A DNA stretch of 61,532 nt from IMG/VR virus record IMGVR_UViG_3300050498_000085, one strand, 5' to 3'. Shown in pieces: positions 777 to 54,618 of the stretch (positions are counted from its first letter, which is position 1; each line of letters starts with the position of its first letter). Under the pieces are notes generated by a model that had not been told where the DNA came from, did not search any database, and worked only from the letters and a program-made list of their open reading frames with translations. Source of the DNA: a virus. Both the position numbers and the translations under genes were made by a program.

Positions 777-1015
777 TGGAGCTTCGTTGCGACTCTCGCC
801 TTCATGGACGGTTGTCCGAAGTAGACGGACGGCCGGCTGTGGAGGTCATGTGTCGCAGCGCCTTCTGCGGGCGAACCGAGGGGCGGGTGGTGCTGCATTA
901 CTTCGATGTGACCACCGGTGATCTGATCACCACCAAGCGTTACAAGCAACCAATCCCGAGAGGGGAGGAAAGCCCAGATGGCTTGGGATCTCGCACTGCC
1001 GTACGGCATGCGTGA
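776..1015 (+). CDS. possible small Cys-containing protein (79 aa); alternative starts GTG 839 / ATG 848
   Basis: ATG overlaps upstream stop (TGATG); sequence ...MCRSAFCGRTEGRVVLHYFDVTTGDLITTKRY looks protein-like; it reads through a dispersed motif copy and overlaps the next gene by 38 nt. Confidence 0.35.
   Translation: MELRCDSRLHGRLSEVDGRPAVEVMCRSAFCGRTEGRVVLHYFDVTTGDLITTKRYKQPIPRGEESPDGLGSRTAVRHA
814..830 (+). repeat. dispersed motif copy GTCCGAAGTAGACGGAC (perfect 5-bp inverted arms)
   Basis: Read directly; arms GTCCG/CGGAC flank AAGTAGA. Confidence 0.9.
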
Positions 1016-1526
1016 CGTCATGCTGAAGCCGTTCACGGACTCCGGCCAGACCACGCTCGGCGCCGGCATCGACCTGCCGAACAGCCGGACTCTCAGCTTC
1101 GAGGAAGCGGAGGAGTTCGAGGAGCTGCGCGGTGACGACAAGGTCGTGGCCATCCGTGGTCGTGGCGCCGTCGTGAACTGGGAGCTGGAGAGCGGTGGTA
1201 TCTCCGTTCCCGCCTACCGGCAGATGGCCGGTGGTTCCACGAGTACGACTGGAGTCACGCCGAACCAGGTGACCTCGTACAACAAGAAGGTCACGGACTC
1301 CCGTCCCTACTTCCAGCAGGAGGGGCAGAGCATCTCCGACAACGGTGGCGACTTCCACGCGCGCATCCTGCGCTCGCGGGCGAACGACACCCTGTCGGGC
1401 GAGCTGTCGGATGGGGCCTTCTGGCTCACCGGCGCGAGCGGCCAGGGCCTGCCGGCTCTCACGACCGGCAAGACCGACTGGCTCTACGAGTTCATCCTCA
1501 ACGAGACCGCGACGGCGATCGCATGA
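978..1526 (+). CDS. major tail protein (putative), 182 aa
   Basis: Strong RBS GGGGAGGAAAG; position upstream of chaperone/tape measure; size and sequence style (..RGDDKVVAIRGRGAVVNWELESGG..) typical of actinophage major tail subunits (recall, not searched). Confidence 0.55.
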   Translation: MAWDLALPYGMRDVMLKPFTDSGQTTLGAGIDLPNSRTLSFEEAEEFEELRGDDKVVAIRGRGAVVNWELESGGISVPAYRQMAGGSTSTTGVTPNQVTSYNKKVTDSRPYFQQEGQSISDNGGDFHARILRSRANDTLSGELSDGAFWLTGASGQGLPALTTGKTDWLYEFILNETATAIA

Positions 1527-1870
1527 CCGCCATCACTCCGGTGGCGCTCGGCCAAGGCCAAGCCGTCACTCCGACCGTCATGACCGCATCCGACACCATT
1601 CCCGTTCAGTCCACCGGTCGCTACCTCATGGTGACGCGCAACACGACGGCGACTCCGCTGGTGACGACCGTGGATGACCCGAACAGCGCGGGACCTGCGG
1701 GCGCGCAGGCGTTCAACCCGGACATCCAGGTGACCACACCGATCACCACCGGAGTCCGGGCGACCGTTCTGGACGCCCAGAGGTTCCGTGATCCGGTCAC
1801 CGGCAACATCGCGTTGACCAACACCGGCTTCGCGGCCGGTACCACGGCCGAAGTGTACGGGCCGTTCTGA
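1523..1870 (+). CDS. hypothetical structural protein, 115 aa, Thr/Val/Pro-rich
   Basis: ATGA overlap with upstream stop; lies between major tail and chaperone genes. Confidence 0.6.
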   Translation: MTAITPVALGQGQAVTPTVMTASDTIPVQSTGRYLMVTRNTTATPLVTTVDDPNSAGPAGAQAFNPDIQVTTPITTGVRATVLDAQRFRDPVTGNIALTNTGFAAGTTAEVYGPF

Positions 1871-1873
1871 TCA

Positions 1874-1890
1874 GTCCGAAGTAGACGAAC
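1874..1890 (+). repeat. dispersed motif copy GTCCGAAGTAGACGAAC
   Basis: Starts 4 nt after stop 1868..1870; 25 nt upstream of GTG 1916. Confidence 0.9.
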
Positions 1891-1915
1891 CACTCGGAGT
1901 CCAAGGAGGCCAGAA

Positions 1916-2563
1916 GTGGCTACTGGAACGAAGCGCGAGAAGGCCAAGGATCTGGGGCGAGTTTCCCAGGCCAACAAGCAGCGAAGCTCGGCGGCGGCCT
2001 GGCGTGAGAAGTCAGTCGGCATCGAGATCGAGGTGCCTTCCGGGAACGTCGCCGTGGTGCGCCGTCCCGGGCCGGAGATGTTTCTGAAGACCGGTCGCAT
2101 CCCGGACGCTCTCTTGCCCATCGTGATGGAGGGCATCCGCGAGAAGCAGGGTCTGCCGCCGGAGAAGGCGGCTGGTCTGATGAAGGACCCTGCGATGTTG
2201 CCGCAGGTCATGGAGATGGTCGATGCCGCAGTGGTTGCGGCGTGTATCGAGCCGGTTGTCCGCGAGGACCCACCGTGTGTCCGTCCGTCCGAAGAGGACG
2301 CTGCGGTGTTGTGCCGTCGCGCTCTCGGAGACCCGATCCACTCCGACCCGAAGAACCCCAAGCGTCACGAGTTCATCCCGGGTGACGCCGAGCCGCCGGA
2401 GGATCGTGACCCGGACTTCCTGTACACGGCCGAGATCGACTTCACCGACAAGATGTTCATCTTCCAGTTCGCGCTCGGAGGTAGCGCCGACCTGGAGCGA
2501 TTTCGTGAGGGACTCCAGCAGTCTATGGAGGGCGTGGACGCTGTCGCAAGCGGTCCGAAGTAG
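1916..2563 (+). CDS. tail assembly chaperone (G-like), 215 aa
   Basis: RBS AAGGAGG; position immediately before tape measure; C-terminal ..LYTAEIDFTDKMFIFQFALGGSADLERFR.. resembles actinophage chaperones (recall). Confidence 0.75.
   Translation: MATGTKREKAKDLGRVSQANKQRSSAAAWREKSVGIEIEVPSGNVAVVRRPGPEMFLKTGRIPDALLPIVMEGIREKQGLPPEKAAGLMKDPAMLPQVMEMVDAAVVAACIEPVVREDPPCVRPSEEDAAVLCRRALGDPIHSDPKNPKRHEFIPGDAEPPEDRDPDFLYTAEIDFTDKMFIFQFALGGSADLERFREGLQQSMEGVDAVASGPK
2287..2303 (+). repeat. dispersed motif copy GTCCGAAGAGGACGCTG, intragenic (codes PSEED)
   Basis: Read directly inside 1916..2563. Confidence 0.85.
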
Positions 2564-2813
2564 ACCGTCGAACCTGTACGGAATCGAAGATGAATACGGA
2601 CCGTATGTCGCCTACTGTTTCGACAACGCTGTGGTGGCGTTCGGCCGAGCACTCGAAGCCGAGCTTGACGCGGTGGAGGGGAAGAACAGCAAAGAGATCA
2701 ACAGGAAGCGTGATCGAGTCTTGCGGAAGTGGCTTGACATGCCGATGAAGTTCCGGAACCCTGGGGGACCGACCACCTCCAGTCCGAAGAGGACGGACAG
2801 CACCAGACGTTGA
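2547..2813 (+). CDS. tail assembly chaperone extension (T-like), coded in the +1 (= -2) frame relative to 1916..2563; exact recoding or entry point unknown
   Basis: Frame 0 reads protein-like ..NLYGIEDEYGPYVAYCFDNAVVAFGRALEAELDAVEGKNSKEINRKRDRVLRKWLDMPMKF.. with no ATG/GTG start near it; the -1 frame reads R/S/T-rich junk and stops at 2746. Confidence 0.55.
   Translation, partial: QAVRSRPSNLYGIEDEYGPYVAYCFDNAVVAFGRALEAELDAVEGKNSKEINRKRDRVLRKWLDMPMKFRNPGGPTTSSPKRTDSTRR
2553..2569 (+). repeat. dispersed motif copy GTCCGAAGTAGACCGTC; its TAG is the chaperone stop codon
   Basis: TAG 2561..2563 = stop of 1916..2563. Confidence 0.85.
2782..2798 (+). repeat. dispersed motif copy GTCCGAAGAGGACGGAC (perfect arms)
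   Basis: 25 nt upstream of tape-measure GTG 2824. Confidence 0.9.
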
Positions 2814-10219: not shown

Positions 10220-10963
10220 ATGACCCAACCTCAGATCGTCATGGGACGGACCCTCGACTGGAGGGGCCACCATGATCCAGCCTCCCGCAACTACCCGGTT
10301 CGAATGGTCATCCGGGAGCTGGCCGGCGAAGCTCCGCCGGTCCAACCGCGCTTCTGGACTCCCCCGCCGTTCGTGCTCAATCAGTTCAGCGAGGGTTTCT
10401 GCGTCGGTTTCGGCTGGTCGGCCGAGCTGGCTGCGTCGCCGGTCCGGATCAGGCGCGTGGACAACGACTTCGCACGTGGGCTCTACTTCGGAGCGCAGCG
10501 CCACGACCGGGCCATGGGGAACATCTGGGATGAGGGCGCATCCGTGCTCGCCGGAGCGCAGGAGTGCGCCGAGCGCGGCCTGATCCCGGAGTACCGCTGG
10601 AGCTTCGGACCGGAGGACCTTCGTGACGCTCTGATGCATGTCGGTCCGGCTGTGATCGGCGTGCCCTACTTCGGCTCCATGTTCACGCCGCGCCCGTCCG
10701 GACTCGTGGAGGTGGACGAGGAGACCGACCCACCCGGACACTGCATGTGCATCATCGGCTACCACCCGAGAATGCGTCTCCCGGGCGAGTCGTGGCGCAA
10801 GCGCTTCGCCGTCTACAAGCTGCGGCAGAGTTGGGGCGGCGCCTTCGGTCGCAAGGGTGACATCTATGTCCGGGAGGAGGACATGGCGAACAAGCTGCTC
10901 GTGAAGCGGTACTGGGGCGAGGCCTGCATCCCCGTGACTCGCCGGTATGGTCCCCAGTCCTGA
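10220..10963 (+). CDS. endolysin, papain-like (C1-type) cysteine peptidase
   Basis: Catalytic-type motifs QFSEGFCVGFGWS (Cys), PGHCMCIIGY (His), RQSWGGAFG; RBS AAGGAAG; start 10211 also possible. Confidence 0.7.
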   Translation: MTQPQIVMGRTLDWRGHHDPASRNYPVRMVIRELAGEAPPVQPRFWTPPPFVLNQFSEGFCVGFGWSAELAASPVRIRRVDNDFARGLYFGAQRHDRAMGNIWDEGASVLAGAQECAERGLIPEYRWSFGPEDLRDALMHVGPAVIGVPYFGSMFTPRPSGLVEVDEETDPPGHCMCIIGYHPRMRLPGESWRKRFAVYKLRQSWGGAFGRKGDIYVREEDMANKLLVKRYWGEACIPVTRRYGPQS

Positions 10964-10973
10964 GAGGAGAGAC
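10957..10973 (+). repeat. degenerate dispersed-motif copy GTCCTGAGAGGAGAGAC (contains upstream stop TGA and the next RBS)
   Basis: 13/17 match to GTCCGAAGAGGACGGAC; ends 1 nt before ATG 10974. Confidence 0.5.
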
Positions 10974-12086
10974 ATGACCGGATCGAAAGGTCCCATGACG
11001 GCCGAAGATCGGCGGTTGTGGGAGGCAGCGTCCGAACAGGACCGAGCACGGTCCGAGAAGACGCTGGCGGATCTCATCGAGGAGGACCGTGCCGACCCCA
11101 CGACGCCGGACCACTTCGACGTCCCGCTGAAGGCGCTGGAGCAGGTCGAGGAGGAGTTGGGGGACGGTAGGCGTCTCGGGATCGGCGGGAACACCTACAA
11201 CATCCAGAAGTTCAAGGAGGCGGCGCAACTCCTCCGGGAGTGGGGCTGGACTGTCGTCTTCATGGATGGGTGGTCCACCCGGGGCGCCAGCCGCCGGCAG
11301 CTGAGCGTTCAGTACATCGGCGATCATCATACCGCAGCCGAAGTCGACGTGGACCGCATCCTGCGCGACGGGCGGTCCGATGTTCCGGGACCGCTCTGCG
11401 AGGTGGCGGTCCACGCGGACTCGACCATCGTCATCGTCGCGGCCGGGCCAGCGAACCACTTTGGCGTGGCGACCATCGACAGCTCGGACGCTTTGGGTGT
11501 CGAGAACACTGGACCGATCCCGATCAATGCGAGCGGCAAGAGCGCCTTCCCCAACTACCGCGCCACTCTGGCTGTGTACGTCGCATTCCGGCGGGTGTAC
11601 GGGTTGGGCACAGCTCGCATCGTGCTCCACAAGGAGACGGCTCGCCCGATCGGGCGCAAGATCGACCGCGCGGTGGATGGAGATACCGTGCGGAGGGAAG
11701 CCGCAGTCACCGAAGTCCTCGCGGACGGATCAGAAGGGCAGGACGAATTCGACATGCGTACCGATGCGGAGATCGTGGAGCTGGCGCGGCAGGGAGCCGC
11801 GAAGGCTCTCAACGCGCTGACCGTGTTCGGCCAGCCGAACTTCGTGGAGACGATCAAGGCCCTGTACAACGAGGTTCGGGCGCAGGCAGACGACCAGGCG
11901 CGCATCACCGATGCCATCGCGGCGGCCCAGGGAGCCGTGCTCGGGGCGCTCACCACGGTCGTCGTGGATCTCTCGGACGCGGACATCGATCGTCTCGCCG
12001 AGCAGACCGGCCTCACCCCGGACGCCATCGAGGCGGCCGTGCGCCGGGTGTTCGCCGATGCCGGTCAGGCCGAGCCGACAAGTTGA
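10974..12086 (+). CDS. endolysin, N-acetylmuramoyl-L-alanine amidase (amidase_2/PGRP-like) with C-terminal extension
   Basis: Motifs GDHHTAAE, ANHFGVA, GVENTG, LHKETARPIGRKID read as the amidase_2 pattern (recall); RBS GAGAGGAGAG. Confidence 0.7.
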   Translation: MTGSKGPMTAEDRRLWEAASEQDRARSEKTLADLIEEDRADPTTPDHFDVPLKALEQVEEELGDGRRLGIGGNTYNIQKFKEAAQLLREWGWTVVFMDGWSTRGASRRQLSVQYIGDHHTAAEVDVDRILRDGRSDVPGPLCEVAVHADSTIVIVAAGPANHFGVATIDSSDALGVENTGPIPINASGKSAFPNYRATLAVYVAFRRVYGLGTARIVLHKETARPIGRKIDRAVDGDTVRREAAVTEVLADGSEGQDEFDMRTDAEIVELARQGAAKALNALTVFGQPNFVETIKALYNEVRAQADDQARITDAIAAAQGAVLGALTTVVVDLSDADIDRLAEQTGLTPDAIEAAVRRVFADAGQAEPTS

Positions 12087-12087: not shown

Positions 12088-12104
12088 CGTCTACTGAGGA
12101 CGGT
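12088..12104 (-). repeat. degenerate, reverse-oriented dispersed-motif copy CCGTCTACTGAGGACGG
   Basis: Differs at 2 positions from the reverse copy at 54602..54618. Confidence 0.45.
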
Positions 12105-22251: not shown

Positions 22252-23286
22252 GTGGATACAGAGCCTGAGGGCGAACAAGTTCAAATACCGACCTTCACCA
22301 CTTCGGAGCGGCGTGCTGCGAAGCGGTGTATTGCTCGGTGGTGGTGGGAGTACCGCGAGGGATTGCGACCGCCCGATCCAAACATCAAGCTGTGGTTCGG
22401 CATCGGAATCCATGAAGCTCTCGCCGTGTACTACGGACGGACCGGGTACAAACGCGACCGGAGCTACATCGACCGCTGGCGTGAATACTGCGACGCGGAT
22501 GAATACTCCCGAGCCATCAGGGTCCGGTTGGACGACACCGGCAAGGATGAGTCCGAGTGGATGGACGCTCGCGCGCTCGGTGAGAACTTGTTGTTGGAAT
22601 ATCCGGAATGGTGGGGCGGTGACCCGAATTGGGACGTCATCGCCACCGAGCGGCCATTTGCCATCGAGATCCCGGACCCCGATGATCCGGATCAGACGGT
22701 CGGCATCTTCAAGTCGACCTTCGATGGTGTCTATCGCGACAAGAGCGATGGCCGCATCCGATTGATGGAGCACAAGACCACGACGGATACGAACACGTCA
22801 TGGCTCGCCTTGGATGACCAAGGTGGCGCCTATTGGGCTTTAGCGCCGCTCATCCTCCGCGACTCGGGTGTACTCGGACCGCGCGACTCCATCCACTCCA
22901 TACAGTACAACTTCATCCGCAAGGCCAAGCCGGATGACCGTCCCCGGAACGCGGCCGGCCTCTACCTGAACCAAAATGGCTCCGTCTCCAAGGTCCAGCC
23001 CAAGCCGCGTTTCTTCCGACCCGACCCGGTACGCCGCACCAAGCGCGAGCAGGCTACACAGATCCGTCGCATCGCCGATGAGTTGCTAGCGTTGGAGCGC
23101 TTCCGGACCGGCGAGCTACGCATCACCAAGACTCCCACTCGGGACTGCCACTGGGATTGCGCATTCTTCCAGATGTGTCAGCTTCACGAGATGGGCGGTC
23201 CAGACTGGACCGAGTACCGGGATGCCGTGTATCTGGTCGAGGACCCGTACAGCCGGTACAAGCTTCGCAAGTCCGCATCGTCCTAA
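22252..23286 (+). CDS. PD-(D/E)XK exonuclease, Cas4/RecB-like with Fe-S cysteines
   Basis: N-terminal Cys (AAKRC) plus C-terminal CHWDCAFFQMC; ..FDGVYRD..IRLMEHKT (D..ExK); QGGAYWAL. Confidence 0.8.
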   Translation: MDTEPEGEQVQIPTFTTSERRAAKRCIARWWWEYREGLRPPDPNIKLWFGIGIHEALAVYYGRTGYKRDRSYIDRWREYCDADEYSRAIRVRLDDTGKDESEWMDARALGENLLLEYPEWWGGDPNWDVIATERPFAIEIPDPDDPDQTVGIFKSTFDGVYRDKSDGRIRLMEHKTTTDTNTSWLALDDQGGAYWALAPLILRDSGVLGPRDSIHSIQYNFIRKAKPDDRPRNAAGLYLNQNGSVSKVQPKPRFFRPDPVRRTKREQATQIRRIADELLALERFRTGELRITKTPTRDCHWDCAFFQMCQLHEMGGPDWTEYRDAVYLVEDPYSRYKLRKSASS

Positions 23287-23296
23287 GAGGACGGTC
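23280..23296 (+). repeat. dispersed motif copy GTCCTAAGAGGACGGTC (TAA = exonuclease stop)
   Basis: Read directly; 16 nt upstream of ATG 23313. Confidence 0.8.
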
Positions 23297-38667: not shown

Positions 38668-40194
38668 GTGCCTCTCCTGGAGCCGACCGGCCTACCGCAG
38701 TGGTACATCGACTGCTGTAACGAGATGAGTGCCCGCGCCAGCGCTCTGGTCTCTGAGGCCGACAACGCGTCCAACGTCCTCTTCGGACGGTCGCTGTACG
38801 GCGACCGGGTGTACGTCGGCTCGCGCGACGTGGATGACGACCGCGTCACGAACCTGCTGCGGGATGTCGCGTTCAACCGGCATTCGATGAACGACGGGCA
38901 GCACGTCTCGCCACTCGACAACGGCCGACTCCAGGTCGGGACGGATGGGATCATCGTCAAGCTGGTCCAGGGCCTCGATGAGGCCGCATTCAAGCGCACG
39001 CTGGACATGGCGACCCGCGCGACGATCGGGATGGACCTCTCGCAGCCGATCCCGGGCGACTGGGAGCCATGCCCCGAGTTCACCGCCGCGCGGGCGAGGC
39101 AGCTCGACTCGCCGGCCGATCCGTCCAACCGGGGTGACGTGATCGAGCTTCGCTGCGGCCATGCCAGTCACCGATCGACCACGATCAACCCAGGCTGGCA
39201 GGGCGAGGAGACCTCGGTGGGCCTCGCCCTGCTATGGGAGGGACAGGTGGCCGGGGGCGAGTGGGAGGAGATGCTGAAGGGCGGACTCCAGACCGCGCTG
39301 GAGTCGCAGGTGATCGTGTTTGCCGTCTCCGGCATCTCGCGTACGTGCACCCACCAGCTCGTGCGCTCCCGTCGGGCCGCCTTCCACCAGCAGTCGCAGC
39401 GCGCGAGTTTCTACGGTGTCGCGCCGGAAGTCCGGATGCCCGAATCGGTCTGGCTCAACCCGCGCGCTCGGCGGGCCGCACTGGACGCCTATGCTGCCGC
39501 ACAAGAGGCATACCGGATCATCTGCGAGGAGGACATCAGCTACCAGGACGCGCGATTCGTTCTCCCGGAAGGGACGACCAACTACATCCTCTGTGAGTAC
39601 AACGTCAAGGAGTTCCGCGATGTCTTCGCCTATCGCGGTTGCTCGATGTTCTCCTGGGAGATCGTCCATGTGATGCGGGAGATGCGGCGCCTCTTGGTCG
39701 AGGCCCATCCATTCCTCGCGGACTTGATCAAGATCAGCTGCGAGAAGACCAGCCGGGCAAAGGATCGCGACCCTGGATATGCGACGCTTCCGGGCGGGGA
39801 GGGCGCGGCCCACACATGTACCTTCCAGGGGTGGGAGCGCGTCGATGGGCAATGCGACTTCCCGTGGGCGCGCGACACCAACCGCACGTTCCGCTCGGCC
39901 ACGTACGAGATCGGGCGGAAGCCGGAGACCTACAGTCCGGCGGGACTCCTTTCGGATGCCGAGGCGAAAGAGCGAGCAGCTGAGCTTCTGAAGCGTCGTC
40001 GTCCCGGATCATCTCATCCCGCAGCCCAAGCCATCGCGAGGCACCCGGAGGAGGATGGGTTGGCCCACGAGTTGAGGGAGATGGCGCGTTCGGATGGAAC
40101 CATCGGCGCCGGAGACCCCGGGGAGCCACGCGTGCCCTCCACGGACTCCGAGGCTCGCCGGCCGGACCACTACCCGGGGCGAGGTGGGTGGTAG
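38668..40194 (+). CDS. divergent ThyX-like (flavin-dependent thymidylate synthase family) protein with N- and C-terminal extensions, 508 aa
   Basis: ..VSGISRTCTHQLVRSRRAAFHQQSQRASF.. against the canonical ThyX ..RHRxxSxxxxSxR signature; ..ARFVLPEGTTNYIL.. downstream block. Confidence 0.7.
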   Translation: MPLLEPTGLPQWYIDCCNEMSARASALVSEADNASNVLFGRSLYGDRVYVGSRDVDDDRVTNLLRDVAFNRHSMNDGQHVSPLDNGRLQVGTDGIIVKLVQGLDEAAFKRTLDMATRATIGMDLSQPIPGDWEPCPEFTAARARQLDSPADPSNRGDVIELRCGHASHRSTTINPGWQGEETSVGLALLWEGQVAGGEWEEMLKGGLQTALESQVIVFAVSGISRTCTHQLVRSRRAAFHQQSQRASFYGVAPEVRMPESVWLNPRARRAALDAYAAAQEAYRIICEEDISYQDARFVLPEGTTNYILCEYNVKEFRDVFAYRGCSMFSWEIVHVMREMRRLLVEAHPFLADLIKISCEKTSRAKDRDPGYATLPGGEGAAHTCTFQGWERVDGQCDFPWARDTNRTFRSATYEIGRKPETYSPAGLLSDAEAKERAAELLKRRRPGSSHPAAQAIARHPEEDGLAHELREMARSDGTIGAGDPGEPRVPSTDSEARRPDHYPGRGGW

Positions 40195-45258: not shown

Positions 45259-45446
45259 GTACCCCGGGTCGGCGCCGGGTGTTGCGGGCGCTGGCTGCTC
45301 GGAAGCGAGCGAATGCCGCGCGGGTAGCACGTGGGCAGAAGCCCATCCTTCAAGGGAAGCAAGTAGCTCTGTCGACCTTCAACTGGAAGACCGGAGCCGG
45401 ACTCACCAAGAAGAAGGCAAGGCAACGAGTCAAGAAGCGCGGATGA
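45255..45446 (+). CDS. small very basic protein, 63 aa
   Basis: ATGA overlap. Confidence 0.55.
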   Translation: MSTPGRRRVLRALAARKRANAARVARGQKPILQGKQVALSTFNWKTGAGLTKKKARQRVKKRG

Positions 45447-45640
45447 TCGCCGAGCGGGATGGAATTTGCGCTCGCAGGGATCTCCACTGGGACGCGCCAG
45501 AATCCGCGCGGTTCGAAGAGGGAGACTCAATCGCCTGGTCCTTCGTCGGCGCCGGATGGGCTCACATCCAATGTGTCCGGGATGAGGAAGAGCCAGAGGA
45601 ATTCGCCGGTACGCCGCGCTGGAAGTCGCAGGCGTCCTAA
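45443..45640 (+). CDS. hypothetical protein, 65 aa
   Basis: ATGA overlap. Confidence 0.55.
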   Translation: MIAERDGICARRDLHWDAPESARFEEGDSIAWSFVGAGWAHIQCVRDEEEPEEFAGTPRWKSQAS

Positions 45641-45650
45641 GTAGACGGAG
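45634..45650 (+). repeat. dispersed motif copy GTCCTAAGTAGACGGAG (TAA = upstream stop)
   Basis: Ends 5 nt before ATG 45656. Confidence 0.8.
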
Positions 45651-45655: not shown

Positions 45656-45955
45656 ATGATCAAGAGCAAGAGAGTTCTGAAGCTCCATTCCCAGTACGCG
45701 GGCGTGGTGCTCTTCACGAATGGTGAGGAGGGGATGGCGGAGGAGCATATCAGCCAGGTCCGTCTACCCGAGCAGGACTGGATGGATATGCTGTGCCCTC
45801 GTGAACTCACTGTCACGATCGAGCCGGGCGACAAGCTCAATGTCCCGGGTGTGGAGGGAGCGGATGAGATCGCGCGCTCGGTCACGACTCCGGCCAAGGA
45901 GCGTGCGGGCGGCCCCTCGGACCCGTACGGAGTTCGTCCGAATAGGACGGACTGA
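45656..45955 (+). CDS. hypothetical protein, 99 aa
   Basis: ORF track; motif/RBS directly upstream. Confidence 0.7.
   Translation: MIKSKRVLKLHSQYAGVVLFTNGEEGMAEEHISQVRLPEQDWMDMLCPRELTVTIEPGDKLNVPGVEGADEIARSVTTPAKERAGGPSDPYGVRPNRTD
45936..45952 (+). repeat. dispersed motif copy GTCCGAATAGGACGGAC (perfect arms)
   Basis: Ends 2 nt before ATG 45955. Confidence 0.85.
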
Positions 45956-46512
45956 TGCCCGACAGCGATGTCATTGGGGCCGAGGACGGCGAGAGCGTCA
46001 GTGACGCCGGTCATGGCCCGGCTGTCCCTGCTCCCTCGGTCGAGCCGGAGGACAGCTGGCTGGGCGCGGATGAAGTCATCCGCATCCTGAAGTTCTGCGG
46101 GCAAGTAGGTCGGCTACTCGGTCTGCCCGACTTCCGGTATGTCTTCGCGGCTGATCCGTCCGAAGAGGACTGTCATGCGTCCGTGACGGTTGCCTCGAAA
46201 CGGTACGTTGCCGTGGTCGCCGTGAACAAGGAGTGGGGCGGCTACACGGTACGGGCGAAGGCCGAGAGCCTGGCGCATGAGGTACTCCATTGCTTCATGG
46301 CTCGGCTCGATGAGATCTGGGATCAGGCCTGCTTCAACGACTTCATCCCCTCGCCGACCGCCCAGATGCTCCAGCGGGTCTGGGTCCGCGAGATGGAGCT
46401 GGTCGTGGATCTCCTGACCATGTTCGTCTACAACACCAAGGATCTGGAGAAACTCTGGGACGACTGCGGACCGTCCGAAGAGGACGAAGTGACACCCATA
46501 GGACCGTCCTGA
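45955..46512 (+). CDS. HExxH zinc-metalloprotease-motif protein, 185 aa
   Basis: ..AESLAHEVLHCFMARL..; TGATG overlap. Confidence 0.7.
   Translation: MPDSDVIGAEDGESVSDAGHGPAVPAPSVEPEDSWLGADEVIRILKFCGQVGRLLGLPDFRYVFAADPSEEDCHASVTVASKRYVAVVAVNKEWGGYTVRAKAESLAHEVLHCFMARLDEIWDQACFNDFIPSPTAQMLQRVWVREMELVVDLLTMFVYNTKDLEKLWDDCGPSEEDEVTPIGPS
46158..46174 (+). repeat. dispersed motif copy GTCCGAAGAGGACTGTC, intragenic (PSEED)
   Basis: Read directly. Confidence 0.85.
46473..46489 (+). repeat. dispersed motif copy GTCCGAAGAGGACGAAG, intragenic (PSEED)
   Basis: Read directly. Confidence 0.85.
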
Positions 46513-46522
46513 GAGGACCGTT
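46506..46522 (+). repeat. dispersed motif copy GTCCTGAGAGGACCGTT (TGA = stop of 45955..46512)
   Basis: Ends 1 nt before ATG 46523. Confidence 0.75.
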
Positions 46523-46744
46523 ATGGCATTCCAGGAAGTCGGCAAGCTGTTCCATTCCCAGGATGGGCTCTACTTCGGACGCACGGAGGACGGTTCGGTG
46601 TACGTCCGATGGAATAGCAATGAGACCACACTACCCGAGGCAAGCTGGGCGAGCGTTGTAGCCTCGGTATCGGCGCGCGGCGACAACTCGAAGACGTGGG
46701 CCGAGGCTTGCGACTTCCACAATGGTTTCGAGGATCATTCATGA
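46523..46744 (+). CDS. hypothetical protein, 73 aa
   Basis: ORF track. Confidence 0.65.
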   Translation: MAFQEVGKLFHSQDGLYFGRTEDGSVYVRWNSNETTLPEASWASVVASVSARGDNSKTWAEACDFHNGFEDHS

Positions 46745-46851
46745 GGTTCCCGCCCGATGGCATAGGCAAGGTCGACATCCTAGTGGTCCTGATAGGACTG
46801 TTGGCCTTGATCGCGATTATGGCCGTGCTCTTCACTCGGATTCCCGGATGA
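46741..46851 (+). CDS. very small membrane protein, 36 aa (below ORF-track cutoff)
   Basis: ATGA overlaps at both ends; VDILVVLIGLLALIAIMAVLF; translated by hand. Confidence 0.4.
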   Translation: MRFPPDGIGKVDILVVLIGLLALIAIMAVLFTRIPG

Positions 46852-47153
46852 CCGGGGCGCGGCTCGAAGCTCGGCTGACGGTATCGGGCAATCACTGCAC
46901 CGTTCACGGATACCACTGGCCTGAGCCGCTTCGGACCGTCAAACACCACATTCTTCCGGAGAGCGAGGGAGGGAAGGCGACCCCGGACAACCTTGTCCTG
47001 GTGTGCGATACCGGGCACTACAGTATTCACCACATCCTCGACATAGCGTTGGCGACCGGGAAGCTCCCCGCGCTCGGCACCCGCAAGGAGCGCGAGATCG
47101 CATCCGAGGGTTACCGGCGGATCAAGGCCAAGGCCAACAAAGCTCCGAAGTAG
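46848..47153 (+). CDS. HNH endonuclease, 101 aa (terminase-associated)
   Basis: ..VKHHILPESEGGKATPDNLVLVCDTGHYSIHH..; directly upstream of the large terminase. Confidence 0.85.
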   Translation: MTGARLEARLTVSGNHCTVHGYHWPEPLRTVKHHILPESEGGKATPDNLVLVCDTGHYSIHHILDIALATGKLPALGTRKEREIASEGYRRIKAKANKAPK

Positions 47154-47159
47154 ACGGAC
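47143..47159 (+). repeat. dispersed motif copy CTCCGAAGTAGACGGAC (TAG = HNH stop)
   Basis: TAG 47151..47153. Confidence 0.85.
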
Positions 47160-47309
47160 GTGACCGAGCTGCCACTTTGGTTCTGGGCCATCCCCGGTAC
47201 CGTCTTCCTCTTGACGGCAGCGCTGCCGCTCATATCGCGAGCGCTGTACGGGAGGAGGGTGTGGGGCGATGCCGAAGATTCTGGCGGTCAGTCCGAAGAG
47301 GACGTTTGA
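47160..47309 (+). CDS. possible small membrane protein, 49 aa, overlapping the terminase start by 41 nt
   Basis: GTG directly after a motif copy; VTELPLWFWAIPGTVFLLTAALPLISRALYGRRVWGDAEDSGGQSEEDV; translated by hand; weak. Confidence 0.3.
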   Translation: MTELPLWFWAIPGTVFLLTAALPLISRALYGRRVWGDAEDSGGQSEEDV

Positions 47310-50394: not shown

Positions 50395-50601
50395 GTGACC
50401 AACGCACAAGCGGCCATGATTGCTGCCACATCCGGTGTCAGTTGGGACACTAAGCAGGCGATTCGACGCGCCGAGGAATTCAAAGCCTGGCTGGACGCCC
50501 AGGATGCCAAGCCGTACTCGGAGACCCTGGAGGAGATCCTGCGCGCCAAGGCCAAGTCGGTCATCTCGGAGGAGTTGCATGGGATCAGTCGATCCTCGTG
50601 A
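50395..50601 (+). CDS. hypothetical protein, 68 aa
   Basis: GTG directly after upstream TGA. Confidence 0.55.
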   Translation: MTNAQAAMIAATSGVSWDTKQAIRRAEEFKAWLDAQDAKPYSETLEEILRAKAKSVISEELHGISRSS

Positions 50602-51433
50602 GCCGCTCCGGGCGGTCCTGGGGGTCCATCGCGTCTCGGATGCAGAGATCCGGCGTCTACTTAGGACGGCTGCGGCCGACCTGACAGACGTCATTCTCGC
50701 CAACCCTCTGGATACCGGGGTCGGGACGGCGCTCCGACAGGCCCAACTACGGATCCAAGCCGATGAGATCCTCCGGACACTTTGGCTCAACACCGGGCGG
50801 ACCGTGACGCGAGGCCGGCTGGCCGCCGTAGCTCGCGCGGCGCAGCTCGGAGAGTCCCAGATGCGCCAGCTCCTGGGCGATCTCCCACCCCGGGCGGTCC
50901 AGCAGCTGCTAGATGGCACACGTATGGCAGCTAGGATGGCCGTAGCTCGCGCAACGGCCCGTTTGGCAGGCGAGGGTGCCTATGACCTGTCCGTTCGCGT
51001 CTATCGCAACTACGCGCTCATGCGGGGGCGCGTCGATCGCATGGTCAACTCGGCTATCGCCCGCAACCTGGGGGCGCGAGAGCTGGCGCGGGAGGCTCGC
51101 GCCTACATCCTCCCGACTGCGCCGGGTGGAGCGAGCTACTCGGCGCTGCGACTCGCCCGGACCGAGATCAACAACAGCTTTCACGCCATGACGACCGGCT
51201 ACTATGCGGACAATCCGCTCGTGGACCAGATGCGGTGGCAACTATCGAGGTCTCATCCGCGCGCTGACACCTGCGATGACTTGGTTGGGGATTACTCGAA
51301 GCTTGAGGTGCCGTCCAAACCGCACCCACAGTGCTTCTGTTATGTCACACCAGCTCCGCTCAACGAGCGCGAGGTCTTGCGGCGTCTCGATCGCGGCGAG
51401 TTGGACAGTTGGCTGCAGCGTATGGGAGTCTAG
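50579..51433 (+). CDS. MuF-like / SPP1 gp7-like head morphogenesis protein, 284 aa
   Basis: ..RLARTEINNSFH.. and C-terminal ..KPHPQCFCYVTP.. motifs; ATG 50579 after GGAGGAG (the ORF-track N-terminus from 50420 is Arg/Ser/Pro junk). Confidence 0.75.
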   Translation: MGSVDPREPLRAVLGVHRVSDAEIRRLLRTAAADLTDVILANPLDTGVGTALRQAQLRIQADEILRTLWLNTGRTVTRGRLAAVARAAQLGESQMRQLLGDLPPRAVQQLLDGTRMAARMAVARATARLAGEGAYDLSVRVYRNYALMRGRVDRMVNSAIARNLGARELAREARAYILPTAPGGASYSALRLARTEINNSFHAMTTGYYADNPLVDQMRWQLSRSHPRADTCDDLVGDYSKLEVPSKPHPQCFCYVTPAPLNEREVLRRLDRGELDSWLQRMGV

Positions 51434-51440
51434 TTCGGAC
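51428..51440 (-). repeat. reverse-oriented dispersed-motif core GTCTAGTTCGGAC (TAG = MuF-like stop)
   Basis: 1 mismatch to the reverse complement of GTCCGAAGTAGAC. Confidence 0.6.
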
Positions 51441-51528: not shown

Positions 51529-52293
51529 ATGAAGCTGAAGATGCGTCCTCGTCCGCTCGCGTGGATCGACGGTCGGCCGGTGTGGCCGTTCGCCGGTGCC
51601 GAGGGTGAGGGCGAGGGCGACAACGCGACCGGTACACAGGGCGGTACTGGGGGCGCCGGCTCCACACAGAGCGGTGGTACGTCGGATGGTGGGACGTCGG
51701 ACAAGAAGGACGACGCACAGAGCGGCGGTCAGTCCTCTTCGGACGACAAGGTGGAGCGCTCCGAGTTCGAAGCGATCAAGCAGAAGATGATCGCTGCGGA
51801 CCGGCGTGCGGAGGCCGCAGAGAAGAAGGCCAAGGAGTACGAGGACAAGGACAAGGGCGAGCTGGAGAAGGCCACAGAGCGGGCCGAAGCAGCCGAGAAG
51901 CGCGTCCAGACCCTCGAAGACGAACTGGCCGACATGCGGCTCAACCAGGCGATGTTGACCGATCCCAACTACGGCGCGGACAAGTGGCACGACGTCGAGG
52001 ACGTCCTGACGCGACTTCGCAAGGCCGTGAAGGACGACGGGTCATCGGTGACCATCGCCGAGGACGGCACTGTCAAGGGCGTCTCGGCGTTCCTGAAGCA
52101 GCTGGCGACCAACAAGAAGTACCTGCTCAAGACCGCAGCGCAGAACGCGGGTGGGGGAGCTTCGGGCGACCCGGCCAACGGCGATCGGCGCGGCGGTGGT
52201 GGCGGCTCGGACGGCGCGGGCACCGGCAAGTCCGGAGTCAGCAAGGAGCGTCGCGCGAAGCTCGCTGAGACCTACCCATCCATCCGACGCTGA
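51529..52293 (+). CDS. scaffolding protein (putative), 254 aa
   Basis: Gly-rich N-terminus, then a charged coiled-coil-like region; position before the capsid genes. Confidence 0.7.
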   Translation: MKLKMRPRPLAWIDGRPVWPFAGAEGEGEGDNATGTQGGTGGAGSTQSGGTSDGGTSDKKDDAQSGGQSSSDDKVERSEFEAIKQKMIAADRRAEAAEKKAKEYEDKDKGELEKATERAEAAEKRVQTLEDELADMRLNQAMLTDPNYGADKWHDVEDVLTRLRKAVKDDGSSVTIAEDGTVKGVSAFLKQLATNKKYLLKTAAQNAGGGASGDPANGDRRGGGGGSDGAGTGKSGVSKERRAKLAETYPSIRR

Positions 52294-52681: not shown

Positions 52682-53976
52682 GGGACGTGACCAAGGTCCT
52701 GGACCCCATCTTCGATCTGTCCCGGGTGTCGACCCTCGTGTACCCGGGCATGCGCCCGTTCGTCATCCCGGCCGGAGCGCTGCGCGCGCCCCGGTCCGAA
52801 GAGGACGCCGCACGGATCGTGGAGCTTCAGCGGCTCGGCGTGGTCCCCGGCTTCGCGGGTGGCGAGTACGGCTACAACTCCACGGGCGACTTGCTCACGC
52901 GGACGTCCGACGGATTCGACCTGAACGAGCTGTGGGACGAGTTCGTGGACGTCGTGAACCTGAACAACGAGCCGCGCGACAACATGGTCTCCTTCCTGAC
53001 CTTCCCGGTGACGGAGCCGGTGGAGCGCGTTCCTCAGGCCGGAAACCTCGTCAACTTCGAGGTGGCCACCGAGTACGGCGAGCCGCGCGGCGTGCGCGTC
53101 AAGCTGACGTACTTCTCGCTGGCCTACGACATCGAGTGGTACGACGTCGGCGTGCGGTACACGTACCGCTTCCTGGCGACCGCTCCGGCGTCGCAGCTCC
53201 GGGCCATCGCCAACTCGGTCAACGAGGCGGACAACCGGAACGTCTTCACGAAGGTCATGCGGACGATCTTCAACTCCGCCAACCTGACCGCGACGATCGA
53301 GGGTCAGCCGTACACCGTCTACAAGTTCTACAACAACGACGGCACGGTTCCTCCGGCGTACAAGACGAACACGTTCCTCTCGACCCACCAGCACTACGTC
53401 ACGAGCGGTGCGGCGACGGTGGACAGCGAGGACGTGGAGCGCCTCATCGGTCTGGTAACCGAGCACGGCTACGAGCCGGCTGTGGGTTACCAGCTGATCC
53501 TCCTGGTGAACAAGCAGGAGGGGACGCAGATCCGGAAGTTCCGGCTGGGGCAGACAAACAACAACGCGGCCGTGGCCAACTACGACTTCATCCCGGCCGT
53601 CAACCAGCCGGACTTCCTGCTGTCGGCAACGCAGCAGGTCGTGGGAGCGCGGCCGGCCGGAACGCTCCAGGGCCTCACGGTCATTGGGTCGTACGCGGAC
53701 GTCCTGGTCGTGCAGGACGACTACATCCCGGCCGGGTACATGGTGTGCTTCGCGACCGGTGGGCCACGGAACCTGCAGAACCCTGTGGGCTTTCGGCAGC
53801 ACGCGCAGGCCGCTCTTCAGGGCCTGCAGCTGGTTCGTGGTCCGGTGCCGGACTACCCGCTCATCGACTCCTTCTATCAGAGGATCTTCGGGACGGGCAT
53901 CCGGCAGCGCGGCGGTGGCGCGGTCATGCAGGTCACCGCTGCCGGTTCGTACACGGCCCCGGCCGCGTACACGTGA
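52678..53976 (+). CDS. major capsid protein, 432 aa
   Basis: GTGA overlap; size and synteny (after scaffold and decoration genes). Confidence 0.8.
   Translation: MRDVTKVLDPIFDLSRVSTLVYPGMRPFVIPAGALRAPRSEEDAARIVELQRLGVVPGFAGGEYGYNSTGDLLTRTSDGFDLNELWDEFVDVVNLNNEPRDNMVSFLTFPVTEPVERVPQAGNLVNFEVATEYGEPRGVRVKLTYFSLAYDIEWYDVGVRYTYRFLATAPASQLRAIANSVNEADNRNVFTKVMRTIFNSANLTATIEGQPYTVYKFYNNDGTVPPAYKTNTFLSTHQHYVTSGAATVDSEDVERLIGLVTEHGYEPAVGYQLILLVNKQEGTQIRKFRLGQTNNNAAVANYDFIPAVNQPDFLLSATQQVVGARPAGTLQGLTVIGSYADVLVVQDDYIPAGYMVCFATGGPRNLQNPVGFRQHAQAALQGLQLVRGPVPDYPLIDSFYQRIFGTGIRQRGGGAVMQVTAAGSYTAPAAYT
52794..52810 (+). repeat. dispersed motif copy GTCCGAAGAGGACGCCG, inside the capsid gene (RSEED)
   Basis: Read directly. 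Confidence 0.85.
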
Positions 53977-54035
53977 TCTCCGGGCGGGGCGCCCAAAGGC
54001 GGTCGGGTCTGCGGGCGCTCCGCACGGTTCCAACA

Positions 54036-54052
54036 GTCCGAAGAGGACGGAA
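54036..54052 (+). repeat. dispersed motif copy GTCCGAAGAGGACGGAA followed by a second GAAGAGGAC
   Basis: Intergenic; 9 nt before ATG 54062. Confidence 0.85.
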
Positions 54053-54061
54053 GAGGACAAC

Positions 54062-54577
54062 ATGAGGCAGATCGACATGAGCAAGCCTCTCTCGGACGAC
54101 GACCGGGACTGGCTGTTGGCGAACAACGGCGAGGATCAGGTGCGCCGGAACGCGGAGGAGCACGGCCTGGAGCTTCCGGAGGGGATGCCCAACCGTCCCG
54201 CCGGTACCGTCACCACCGGGGCCGAGCCGGCTCACCTCTCCGACCGGCTCTACCCCACCGGTCTCACTCCGGCCACGGCCGAGGCGGATCTGGATCGGCA
54301 GCGTCGGGAGGCGCAGTTTCAGGCCGCTCTGGATGCCGAGCGTCCCGAGGACGACCCGGACGTGGACCAGAGTGGCGAGGCTTCGCCGCTCGGTACCCGT
54401 GGGCTCACCGTGGAGACGGACGACAACCCGTACGAGAGCTGGAAGGGCGATGCCCTCAAGGCGGAGCTGGAGAAGCGCGAGCTGAGCAAGTCCGGGAACA
54501 AGGACGAGCTGGCGGCGCGTCTCCGGGCCGACGATGAGGAGCGTGCGGCAGCGGCCGAGGACGAGACGGCCGAGTGA
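54062..54577 (+). CDS. SAP/HeH-domain protein, 171 aa
   Basis: ..WKGDALKAELEKRELSKSGNKDELAARLRADD.. SAP-like helix-extended-helix; ATG 54062 (upstream part of the ORF-track frame overlaps the capsid gene). Confidence 0.65.
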   Translation: MRQIDMSKPLSDDDRDWLLANNGEDQVRRNAEEHGLELPEGMPNRPAGTVTTGAEPAHLSDRLYPTGLTPATAEADLDRQRREAQFQAALDAERPEDDPDVDQSGEASPLGTRGLTVETDDNPYESWKGDALKAELEKRELSKSGNKDELAARLRADDEERAAAAEDETAE

Positions 54578-54601
54578 GGTCTGGGGAGGGGCCGGGAGCA
54601 A

Positions 54602-54618
54602 CCGTCTACTTCGGACGG
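54602..54618 (-). repeat. reverse-oriented dispersed motif copy CCGTCTACTTCGGACGG
   Basis: Reverse complement = CCGTCCGAAGTAGACGG. Confidence 0.85.

Follow-up and report, generated by a model that had tools for sequence, protein, structure and literature searches.

Why should a phage carry some thirty nearly identical short sequences at the boundaries and in the interiors of its genes, and what might read them? The question is raised by the virus record IMGVR_UViG_3300050498_000085, a stretch of 61,532 nucleotides (hereafter the window) made up of a 61,405-bp genome and a 127-bp assembly overlap (bases 1-127 = 61406-61532), in which an original prediction, drawn from the DNA letters alone, had noticed a dispersed motif. 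We confirmed that this observation is real and found that the number of copies had been underestimated: the window holds ~27-33 sites of a 13-bp element with the form GTCC-N5-GGAC, usually GTCCGAAG[A/T][G/A]GAC, with the 13-mer forms GTCCGAAGAGGAC and GTCCGAAGTAGAC. We tentatively propose that, in this uncultured actinobacterial phage, double-stranded DNA is recognized at the motif by a putative lineage-specific, likely dimeric protein that would modulate transcription of the late operon.

The motif is far more frequent than chance allows. TCCGAAGAGGAC is present in 10 copies (8 forward and 2 reverse) and TCCGAAGTAGAC in 5 (4 forward and 1 reverse, the latter at 54604-54615), where dinucleotide shuffles are expected to give 0 of either. 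The seven TCCGAAGAGGAC copies listed originally are all there, with copies at 27463(+), 38776(-) and 51732(-) having been overlooked, and the earlier tally of TCCGAAGTAGAC was borne out. The variants reported at 10957, 23280, 45634, 45936, 46506, 51428(-) and 12089(-) also exist; the sequence described as a split copy near 24688 is found, but it is a partial copy with 3 mismatches (GTCCGAAGAGCCG). At up to 3 mismatches, the extended 17-mer has 23 matches against 0.92 expected from dinucleotide shuffles. We also used a codon-preserving shuffle, a control that the original prediction had called for, in which synonymous codons are permuted within each gene and bases are shuffled within each gap. 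The motif passes this control, as exact GTCCGAAG[AT][AG]GAC is found 11 times forward and 3 times in reverse (0.15 and 0.06 expected, respectively). Allowing one mismatch raises these counts to 18 and 6 (1.7 and 0.65 expected), and allowing two raises them to 26 and 11 (8.0 and 5.0 expected).

Within genes, the copies reveal what is being selected. Most forward intragenic copies read x|TCC|GAA|GAG|GAC, and the proteome of 19,067 residues has 6 S-E-E-D (SEED) peptides, every one of them encoded by G|TCC|GAA|GAG|GAC, in a genome where GAA makes up only 17% of Glu codons. SEED itself is found 6 times against 0.36 expected, and SDED, SEDD, TEED, SEEE and SEDE are found 0 times each. Because every SEED uses identical codons, the DNA dictates the peptide; selection thus acts on nucleotides rather than peptides, and it is strong enough to override codon usage. 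Further intragenic copies are read in other frames (as P-K-R-T, V-L-F-G and S-S-S-D), and copies occupy three reading frames in addition to non-coding DNA. This proteome-wide SEED signature is direct evidence of strong selection for the sites.

These data effectively refute the idea that the repeats have no function of their own, being by-products of a SEED or SEVD peptide, chance matches or footprints of small mobile elements. It is true that many intragenic copies encode the same peptide and that the gene for a SAP-domain protein is flanked by inverted copies. However, a peptide-driven repeat is rejected by the codon-preserving shuffle, which leaves proteins unchanged, and by the codon identity of the SEED peptides, as well as by the use of three frames and non-coding DNA. 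A mobile-element or insertion footprint is rejected because the intragenic copies align without gaps to their homologs in the Microbacterium Cluster EF phage AnnaSerena, where they appear as substitutions in variable, hydrophilic stretches. In the leader of the tail assembly chaperone (TAC) gene, the copy at 1874 is also exact in a related contig (L104:8963), while a motif-free relative, L107, keeps the leader but has GCACACCAACC at this place; the 13-mer replaces 11 nt of an otherwise conserved leader with no duplication.

The core of the motif is a dyad of strict geometry. The window contains 22 copies of GTCC-N5-GGAC, where 2.47 are expected and no shuffle gave more than 7, and N5 is the only enriched spacing: at the other spacings from 0 to 11 we counted 0-9 copies, and with swapped arms 0-7. 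GAAGA is the usual spacer, and positions 9-10 are nearly always AG or TA. In the second major form, GTCCGAAGTAGAC, the right arm is relaxed to AGAC and often provides a TAG stop codon. This internal GTCC/GGAC dyad is the general symmetry of the motif, and the 5-bp arms (GTCCG..CGGAC) described earlier are present in few copies only. When we aligned 24 copies with 30-nt flanks, information content was limited to the 13 motif positions and, weakly, G14; therefore, the motif has no -35/-10 partner and no boxA-like neighbor. With no conserved partner element in this alignment, we rejected the reading of the motif as a promoter. Scans for consensus promoters and terminators were at background, the TAGACG hexamer is without the final T of a sigma-70-type element, and no sigma factor or RNA polymerase gene was found.

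To place the motif in an evolutionary context, we used searches with the large terminase (TerL) and the major tail protein together with contig look-ups to find relatives, all of which are partial contigs. Multiple exact copies of both variants are present in L097, L098, L099 and L102/L103 (TerL 85%, 72%, 71% and 63% identical to that of the window, respectively), and the motif is also present in L104-L106 (major tail protein 80% identical). No motif was found in L100/L101 (TerL 63% identical) or L107 (major tail protein 69% identical), nor in the relatives found through the capsid protein in IMG/VR and JGI metagenomes, all of which are <=62% identical. Apparent matches in L084 lie in an acidic low-complexity coding region and were discarded. 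An exact 15-mer scan of IMG/VR returned chance singletons only, the exception being L077, which belongs to the same phage type, is a fragment with 96% identity and has too few substitutions near motifs to gauge constraint.

The original prediction had asked whether related phages keep the motif, and we observed that they do, partly at orthologous positions. Copy 46158 matches L097:1965 perfectly between flanks that are ~55-60% identical as read from the alignment, copy 47291 is conserved at L097:2437, and copy 45634 is conserved at L097:1473 with diverged flanks. Near the same C-terminus as copy 46473, L097:2280 has the GTAGAC variant, which is also kept in L098, L099, L102 and L104. The reverse copy at 51732 is identical at L102:13181, with TCC TCT TCG GAC, including the rare codon TCT, kept in the hypervariable low-complexity N-terminus of the scaffold protein. 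At the end of the TAC gene, L105:2343 (GTCCTCAGTAGAC) and copy 2553 both have the stop codon of TAC-G at motif positions 9-11. The junction after the SAP-domain gene has a copy in reverse in the window and in L102 (L102:15867) and forward in L104 (L104:2322), and at the junction before this gene the window has GTCC-GAAGA-GGAC, L104 has GTCC-TGACA-GGAC and L102 has an inverted pair. The dyad itself is enriched in relatives, with 17 GTCC-N5-GGAC in 18.5 kb of L102 (0.73 expected) and 5 in L099, and in both contigs other spacings and swapped arms were at background. Spacers in L102 are varied (TGTTA, TCTTC and CTTTC among them), with forward and reverse copies about equally frequent.

When we screened without bias for 4-mer dyads with arms 2-8 nt apart, GTCC-N5-GGAC came up again in the window, L102, L099 and L097, and a different dyad emerged in more distant relatives. 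There, TTGC-N5-GCAA (often GTTGC...GCAAC) is present in 17 copies in L015 (IMGVR_UViG_3300037420_000593; for example L015:4789, 15190 and 13755), 15 in L007 and 8 in L002. The 17 copies in L015 compare with 0.28 expected, and again N5 is the only enriched spacing, with variable spacers. Each dyad is at chance level in the other lineage (TTGC dyads, 0 in the window; GTCC dyads, 0 in L015 and 2 in L007). The L015/L007 dyad lies 13 nt inside TerL, where the motif of the window lies 22 nt inside, and the dyad TTGCCGGAGGCAA lies 41 nt upstream of the tape-measure start compared with 42 nt in the window. Because both lineages favor start-proximal positions, these matches are suggestive at most. Arms that are identical within a genome and different in a sister lineage, one spacing, and selection that overrides codon choice together imply a trans-acting, sequence-specific reader that co-evolves with its sites.

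We favor, with less than even confidence, a reader that is a dimer acting on duplex DNA. Of the three roles suggested originally, a protein operator is the best fit, as a predicted binding site. The enrichment and conservation of reverse copies, the orientation flips between relatives and the broken stem of GTAGAC favor duplex DNA and a dimer with degenerate half-sites; in particular, the conservation of GTAGAC despite its broken fourth pair fits half-sites of the form GTCY/RGAC rather than an RNA stem. Each subunit would read one GTCY half-site, with the half-sites exactly 5 bp apart and the spacer GAAG(A/T) contributing to the fit. The ~30 sites in the phage are densest between the small terminase gene (TerS) and TerL and through the head and tail genes; their placement would follow if sites had to be present at some density and settled wherever the sequence tolerates them. 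The bound protein might then modulate passage or initiation of RNA polymerase in the late operon as a stoperator-like roadblock or timing device. Modulation of transcription is favored here by analogy with stoperators, and the roadblock idea leans also on a proposal made for the dyad repeats of Cluster O phages.

If the motif acted instead as RNA, its arms could pair, and an RNA hairpin or processing site was indeed among the roles first suggested. We folded the + strand RNA in a 41-nt window around each copy and rejected a stable RNA hairpin, as the folding energies, ranked among those of random windows, fell anywhere between the 2nd and the 96th percentile. A 4-bp stem with a GAAGA loop is possible for the GAGGAC form; in the GTAGAC form, which is nevertheless conserved across lineages, the fourth pair is lost, and we observed no consistent stable hairpin. 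A boxB/nut-like antitermination signal would be a special case, in which a GUCC-GAAGA-GGAC stem with a GAAGA pentaloop of the lambda nutL boxB type is bound by an arginine-rich N-like peptide that allows RNA polymerase to pass hairpin terminators in the late operon. In addition to the stem and loop of the GAGGAC variant, a 63-amino acid protein of isoelectric point (pI) 12 with an arginine-rich N-terminus (45255-45446) adjoins the cluster of sites, and strong terminator-like hairpins after the capsid and SAP-domain genes adjoin motif copies. However, the loop cannot form in the GTAGAC variant, in reverse copies or with the varied spacers of L102, there is no boxA-like flank, and the basic protein has no detected homolog in relatives. 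Given also that nut sites are few and promoter-proximal, whereas this motif has tens of copies, many of them intragenic, without conserved flanks, we rejected identity with lambda-type nut sites and consider antitermination of this kind highly improbable. Known RNA families or tRNAs were also dismissed as a source of the motif, as no tRNA or Rfam matches were found in the window.

As a separate observation on folding, G+C-rich strong hairpins without U-tracts follow the capsid gene (53977-54035 in the window; L104:1655-1720) and the SAP-domain gene (54578-54640 in the window; L104:2259-2320; L102:15813-15866), and each is followed, or once capped, by a motif copy. Reverse copies 54604 and 12089 lie within strong terminator-like hairpins after genes.

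Placement of the copies relative to genes bears on a second RNA-level reading. Of the 18 forward copies with up to one mismatch, 7 have an annotated start <=30 nt downstream (null 4.8%, p = 1.2e-5) and 7 lie <=5 nt from a stop (null 3.6%, p = 1.8e-6). The claim that the motif sits on gene junctions therefore holds in that forward copies are enriched there, but about half of all copies lie inside open reading frames (ORFs). We confirmed the embedded stops described at 2561, 10961, 23284, 45638, 46510, 47151 and 51431, the stop next to a copy at 45953, and the starts just after copies, 4-13 nt downstream. Overall, sites occupy leaders between genes, overlaps of stop and start codons, the opening ~100 nt of genes and protein linkers of variable sequence, and the spacing to a downstream start codon is 3-29 nt. 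The described concentration in the late operon is also seen, as the late region (44.0 kb via the wrap-around to 12.1 kb) holds 19/24 copies in 48% of the genome. When copies were pooled over lineages, the interval from -45 to +60 nt around a start contained 18/37 forward copies (p = 7e-6), and that from -60 to +120 nt contained 8/13 reverse copies (p = 0.011). The orientation bias is real but weaker than the 17 of ~20 co-oriented copies first claimed: copies with up to one mismatch in the window are 18 forward to 6 reverse, and exact copies pooled with relatives are 22 to 7 (p = 0.008). The + strand of the window is purine-skewed.

From this placement one could propose an RNA element of translation initiation regions, comparable to the start-associated sequences (SAS) of other actinophages, with a purine core (AGAGGA) bound by the ribosome or a phage RNA-binding protein. 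Such an element would set translation of the downstream cistron, including re-initiation at stop/start overlaps and possibly internal starts. The forward bias and the pooled proximity of forward copies to starts agree with this proposal, as do five copies that end 4-9 nt before a start and thus place AGGA at Shine-Dalgarno distance (3 of the 18 forward copies with up to one mismatch plus two GTCCTGAGAGGA variants, the rest being at 13-29 nt or intragenic). By reading, AGAGGA, in the GAGGAC variant, could base-pair to the 3' terminus of 16S rRNA at 6 positions including one G-U; the copy in the capsid gene precedes an in-frame GTG that aligns with the N-terminus of the AnnaSerena capsid protein; and the true SAS of Cluster EF, GGGAAAGGACCCC, has an AGGAC core in common with the motif. 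However, reverse copies are enriched and conserved, which misfits an element that works only as RNA or by translational coupling, the third role suggested originally. Further, the GTAGAC variant is without anti-Shine-Dalgarno complementarity and is followed by its own Shine-Dalgarno sequence, start spacing is 3-29 nt compared with 2-7 nt for SAS, about half of the copies are intragenic compared with 6/125 for SAS, and L102 has nearly equal orientations and varied spacers. An in-frame start is found 3-12 nt after 5/6 of the intragenic copies in the window, but these starts are not conserved in relatives (L097:1965, L102:8665, L099:1415), and we dropped internal translation starts as a general rule. 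We therefore regard an SAS-like element as unlikely.

Several points also weigh against a dimer on duplex DNA that controls transcription. We recognized no DNA-binding regulator, sigma factor, repressor or integrase in the genome, so the reader protein is hypothetical. The 3:1 bias of exact copies toward the transcribed orientation is not predicted for a symmetric dimer; it may partly reflect that the forward strand is easy to encode (as SEED), that upstream of starts the forward strand is Shine-Dalgarno-like and the reverse anti-Shine-Dalgarno-like, or that the + strand is purine-skewed. The spacer in the window is far more conserved than a pure half-site model requires, and an operator with half-sites of 4 bp would be a short one. 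Because the arms are palindromic, the RNA stem is identical in either orientation, and strand symmetry alone does not speak against an RNA target. Finally, most sites are not near a recognizable promoter, and the authors of the Cluster O study doubted a transcriptional role likewise (PMC4351075).

The densest group of sites lies between TerS and TerL, with 8 sites in 2.0 kb compared with ~0.5 per kb genome-wide, and this interval holds 3-8 sites in the window, L097, L098, L099 and L102, though its gene content differs in each. Through this cluster, the motif is tied to entry into the packaging and structural operon. The cluster also suggests that the sites could be non-regulatory, serving for recognition by TerS (as a spread-out pac with secondary sites), for genome marking or organizing in the manner of matS/MatP, parS/ParB or DNA uptake sequences, or as the target of a dimeric nuclease or methyltransferase that recognizes an interrupted palindrome. 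The interval is the densest in all five lineages with GTCC dyads, whatever genes it holds, and L015 has 5 TTGC dyads in the 2.3 kb upstream of TerL, in a contig where we identified no TerS. The tolerant placement and in-frame encoding of the sites resemble those of uptake sequences, palindromes interrupted by N5 are typical of dimeric DNA enzymes, and the phage encodes two HNH endonucleases and a methyltransferase. However, the known pac and cosB sites span no more than a few hundred bp, whereas copies 6-17 kb from the terminase genes are conserved here (in the TAC leader, the scaffold gene and the flanks of the SAP-domain gene), and TerS proteins are only 37-45% identical among lineages with an identical motif. 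Restriction-type sites are normally depleted, not enriched, in phage genomes, and none of these roles explains the proximity to start codons. On balance, a purely non-regulatory role seems doubtful.

A related idea, to which we give a rather low probability, is that the dyads are a lineage-specific genome signature and not gene-expression signals, each lineage having one N5 dyad read by a co-evolving specificity protein such as the small terminase or a protein packaged with the DNA. Sites would then mark self DNA for packaging, protection or organization and would be written into tolerant coding sequence as a phage counterpart of DNA uptake sequences or matS/MatP, and the pile-up between TerS and TerL would be the primary recognition region.

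Which protein might read the sites as a dimer? A search by presence and absence across the partial contigs gave no clean candidate, and the basic protein 45255-45446, the SAP-domain protein 54062-54577 and TerS are guesses. Some relatives share the motif, some have another dyad and some have neither, so that the reader could be traced by phylogenetic profiling once complete genomes are compared. If found, it would represent a new regulator or recognition system of lytic actinophages, and the 13-mer would be a portable control element.

The sites and the genes around them are listed in Table 1. Identical 61.4-kb contigs are present in JGI sample 3300006844 and Logan run SRR5582436, and the 127-bp terminal direct repeat (1-127 and 61406-61532) is typical of a circular assembly overlap. 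Scans with PHROGs and Pfam revealed a siphovirus gene layout with essentially all genes on the + strand. We called genes with our own heuristic; family matches, as well as the genes called on identical or related contigs, back these assignments. In scans of ~80 proteins against PHROGs and Pfam, we recognized no RNA polymerase, sigma factor, repressor, integrase or partition gene and no ParA/B or helix-turn-helix family, though small divergent DNA-binding proteins could escape such scans; the earlier remark that no repressor is evident thus holds. The nearest cultured phages infect actinobacterial hosts (TerL <=52% identical), and in AnnaSerena the gene order and ~26 proteins match the window at 25-57% identity.

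Table 1. Motif copies and principal genes of the window.
Feature	Position	Strand	Context
Exact GTCCGAAGTAGAC (extended GTCCGAAGTAGACGGAC)	814..826	+	Inside ORF 776-1015, upstream of major tail gene; read L-S-E-V-D-G; L104:7907 has GTCTGAAGTAGAC at orthologous codons
Exact copy, intergenic	1874..1886	+	Starts 4 nt past stop of gene 1523-1870; ends 29 nt before TAC start at 1916
Exact copy	2287..2299	+	Inside TAC gene (S-E-E-D); in-place substitution relative to AnnaSerena homolog, no insertion
Exact copy	2553..2565	+	Contains TAG stop of TAC-G (2561-2563); +1-frame T ORF reads through
Exact copy, extended to GGAC	2782..2794	+	End of T ORF; starts 42 nt upstream of tape-measure start 2824
Variant GTCCTGAGAGGAG	10957..10969	+	Embeds TGA stop of gene 10220-10963; ATG 10974 4 nt on
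One-mismatch dyad GTCCGAACAGGAC	11030..11042	+	56 nt inside endolysin gene
Reverse variant GTCCTCAGTAGAC	12089..12101	-	Within hairpin with 7-bp stem right after endolysin stop
GTCCTAAGAGGAC	23280..23292	+	Embeds TAA stop of exonuclease gene; next start 20 nt on
GTCCGAAGCGGAC	24505..24517	+	Sak4-like gene; could be chance
Exact copy	27462..27474	+	Mid primase/helicase gene; S-E-E-D in variable linker
GTCCGAAGCGGAC	35958..35970	+	DNA polymerase gene, over conserved residues; possibly chance
Exact reverse copy	38776..38788	-	108 nt inside ThyX-like gene (V-L-F-G)
GTCCTAAGTAGAC	45634..45646	+	Embeds TAA stop; next ATG 9 nt on; first of 8 TerS-TerL sites
GTCCGAATAGGAC, extended to GGAC	45936..45948	+	Gene 3' end; next ATG 6 nt on
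Exact copy	46158..46170	+	Gene 45955-46512 (S-E-E-D)
Exact copy	46473..46485	+	Near 3' end of gene 45955-46512 (S-E-E-D)
GTCCTGAGAGGAC	46506..46518	+	Embeds TGA stop; next ATG 4 nt on
One-mismatch reverse copy	46568..46580	-	45 nt inside gene 46523-46744
Dyad GTCCTGATAGGAC	46786..46798	.	45 nt inside small membrane-protein ORF 46741-46851
CTCCGAAGTAGAC	47143..47155	+	Embeds TAG stop of HNH gene; next GTG 4 nt on
Exact copy	47291..47303	+	22 nt inside TerL (P-K-R-T); also at 3' end of overlapping small ORF 47160-47309 (S-E-E-D)
One-mismatch reverse copy	50655..50667	-	76 nt inside head-morphogenesis gene
One-mismatch reverse copy	51428..51440	-	Overlaps TAG stop of gene 50579-51433
Exact reverse copy	51732..51744	-	Scaffold gene, TCC TCT TCG GAC (S-S-S-D)
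Exact copy	52794..52806	+	N-terminal extension of major capsid gene (S-E-E-D)
Exact copy, intergenic	54036..54048	+	After post-capsid hairpin; ends 13 nt before SAP-domain start 54062; half-repeat GGAAGAGGAC follows
Exact reverse copy	54604..54616	-	Apex of strong hairpin after SAP-domain gene
Small terminase TerS	44686-45258		phrog_10899; packaging region
HNH gene	46848-47153		Packaging region
Large terminase TerL	47269-48657		Packaging region, which also holds portal gene
Morphogenesis protein			Head region
Scaffold			Head region
Major capsid	52687-53976		Head region
SAP-domain protein	54062-54577		Head region
Small conserved ORF	776-1015		phrog_5278; tail region, which spans wrap-around
Major tail protein	978-1526		
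Tail assembly chaperone (TAC)	1916-2563		With +1-frame extension (T ORF)
Tape measure	2824-5559		
Lysis region	up to ~12.1 kb		
Replication block			Helicase, exonuclease, Sak4, methyltransferase, primase/helicase, DnaE-type polymerase, ThyX

Annotation near the motif needs care, as several starts, stops and small ORFs are easily miscalled, examples being ORFs 776-1015 and 47160-47309 and the +1-frame T ORF. ORF 776-1015, which shares 38 nt with the start of the major tail gene, encodes a Cys-rich protein of 79 amino acids; both L104 and L107 conserve it, and in L104 a gene caller put an opposite-strand ORF there. The T ORF extends TAC to 2813 (TAC region 1916-2813) in the +1 rather than the -1 frame relative to G, with 8/10 substitutions relative to L077 at third positions of the +1 frame, and the AnnaSerena record labels its own chaperone frameshift 'slip weird'. 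The major capsid gene has an N-terminal extension (52687-52818) of 44 residues with very high G+C content at third codon positions, which AnnaSerena gp18 is without. The in-frame GTG at 52819 aligns with AnnaSerena capsid residue 1, 12 nt downstream of the end of the motif copy, and two major-capsid isoforms are conceivable. The basic protein at 45255-45446 (N-terminus MSTPGRRRVLRALAARKRANAARVARG...) lies between the TerS gene and the motif cluster, and L099 has a 39-amino acid protein of pI 12 within the same TerS-TerL interval; both are possible nucleic-acid binders. The DnaE-type polymerase (33450-36578) is a single gene of 1042 amino acids here and two genes in Cluster EF (AnnaSerena 56 and 57).

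The window also contains a second repeat, GCGCGTAGGAG, at 12489-12499, 25435-25458, 43857-43867(-), 43909-43919 and 44000-44010, with a perfect 24-bp palindrome (TCACTCCTACGCGCGTAGGAGTGA) at 25435-25458. It is found only in the three largest intergenic regions (12.4, 25.4 and 43.6-44.0 kb), adjoining A+T-rich stretches, and these are likely promoter/operator (or origin) regions marking the limits of early, middle and late transcription units.

How does the motif compare with known dispersed elements? Its exact sequence is absent from the searchable literature. Stoperators, SAS and extended SAS (ESAS), and the repeats of Clusters O, EC, EG and EI recur in actinobacteriophages, and according to the studies cited here only stoperators have a demonstrated function (PMC4351075, PMC7302621, PMC3203893). 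The analogy to such motifs drawn in the original prediction is apt, given that the nearest cultured relatives, in Cluster EF, carry the 13-bp SAS GGGAAAGGACCCC.

The closest analogue is the 17-bp dyad repeat of Cluster O (TGTTCGGNNNCCGAACA), which has 34 copies, 14 of them intergenic, 10 near ORF 5' ends and ~10 internal, and for which dimeric DNA-binding proteins were proposed as readers (Cresawn et al. 2015, PMC4351075). The same authors judged a transcriptional role unlikely on the grounds that most sites lie away from recognizable promoters (PMC4351075). Both repeats have tens of dispersed copies, invariant inverted arms, a spacer of fixed length and biased sequence (TTT/AAA in Cluster O, GAAGA in the window), a slight orientation preference and sites that are positionally conserved among relatives. 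In our data, arms at fixed spacing are seen in the window, L102 and L099, with GTAGAC relaxing one arm position; sites are spread over intergenic, 5'-end and internal positions; and positions are kept in relatives with occasional loss. However, the arms and spacing differ (4 bp and N5 compared with 7 bp and N3) and the sequences are unrelated, so the Cluster O repeat is an analogue and not the same repeat. The motif of the window further differs in its much more conserved and asymmetric spacer, its 3:1 orientation bias, and its second right arm (AGAC), often supplying a TAG stop. Its sites concentrate in the packaging and structural operon, whereas intergenic Cluster O sites lie mainly among non-structural genes, and Cluster O encodes recognizable DNA-binding proteins, whereas we recognized none in the window.

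Stoperators of Cluster A phages (bound by L5 gp71 and its relatives; PMC9283540, PMC6550527) are also 13 bp long, have many copies mostly in one orientation, often lie in short gaps over stop and start codons, and vary in sequence between related lineages. The motif of the window has an orientation bias of 22:7, but its site is a symmetric dyad with an asymmetric spacer. Stoperators are asymmetric and bound by a monomeric two-domain immunity repressor of a temperate phage; with a dyad-based site and no repressor, integrase, parABS or other temperate functions found in the window, and with half of the copies intragenic, we rejected identity with stoperators.

SAS are known from Cluster K (GGGATAGGAGCCC) and from Microbacterium Cluster EF (PMC3203893, PMC7302621). 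They share with our motif a length of 13 bp, short G+C-rich symmetric ends, a purine-rich Shine-Dalgarno-like core, mostly one orientation and an upstream stop codon within some copies, and Cluster EF has its gene order in common with the window. SAS lie 2-7 nt before the start, in the position of a ribosome-binding site, whereas our motif lies 3-29 nt or more away; in AnnaSerena, the distance from SAS start to start codon is 15-19 nt, except for one 1-mismatch copy at 35 nt. SAS are rarely inside ORFs (6/125 in Cluster K), lie mostly among non-structural genes and are coupled to an upstream ESAS, whereas the motif favors the structural operon, has no conserved flank and, unlike SAS, has reverse copies under selection. 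We therefore rejected identity with SAS on the basis of start spacing, intragenic fraction and reverse copies. Positional orthology was rejected as well, since the EF sites (upstream of genes 15, 49-51, 58-61, 63 and 65, mostly non-structural) match no motif-bearing junction in the window. As an aside, several SAS in AnnaSerena (L093/L094; e.g. 7889-7946, 45380-45437) are preceded within ~45 nt by GTAGCGAAA...TATAGT/TATACT. Judged by their sequence, these upstream regions resemble promoters with an actinobacterial -10 element, and the published ESAS may be promoters.

Microbacterium phages of Clusters EG and EC have an 18-bp inverted repeat (GATCAACCNNGGTTGATC) and an 18-bp asymmetric motif, respectively (PMC7302621). 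Like our motif, these are lineage-specific repeats of lytic actinophages; they are found in 8-12 copies in short intergenic regions only, 14-30 bp upstream of start codons, compared with ~30 copies here that are also intragenic. Outside phages, the sites of matS/MatP, parS/ParB, SlmA and Noc and DNA uptake sequences are ~12-16 bp, often palindromic and dispersed in one genomic domain. They are found in coding and non-coding DNA, with coding copies in tolerated frames, and are not tied to gene starts. No homologs of MatP-, ParB-, SlmA- or Noc-type binding proteins were found in the window. Compared with all of these systems, the new features are the N5 geometry of the dyad, an asymmetric spacer that is conserved, an alternative arm bearing a stop codon, and concentration in the packaging and structural operon of an uncultured clade of lytic actinophages.

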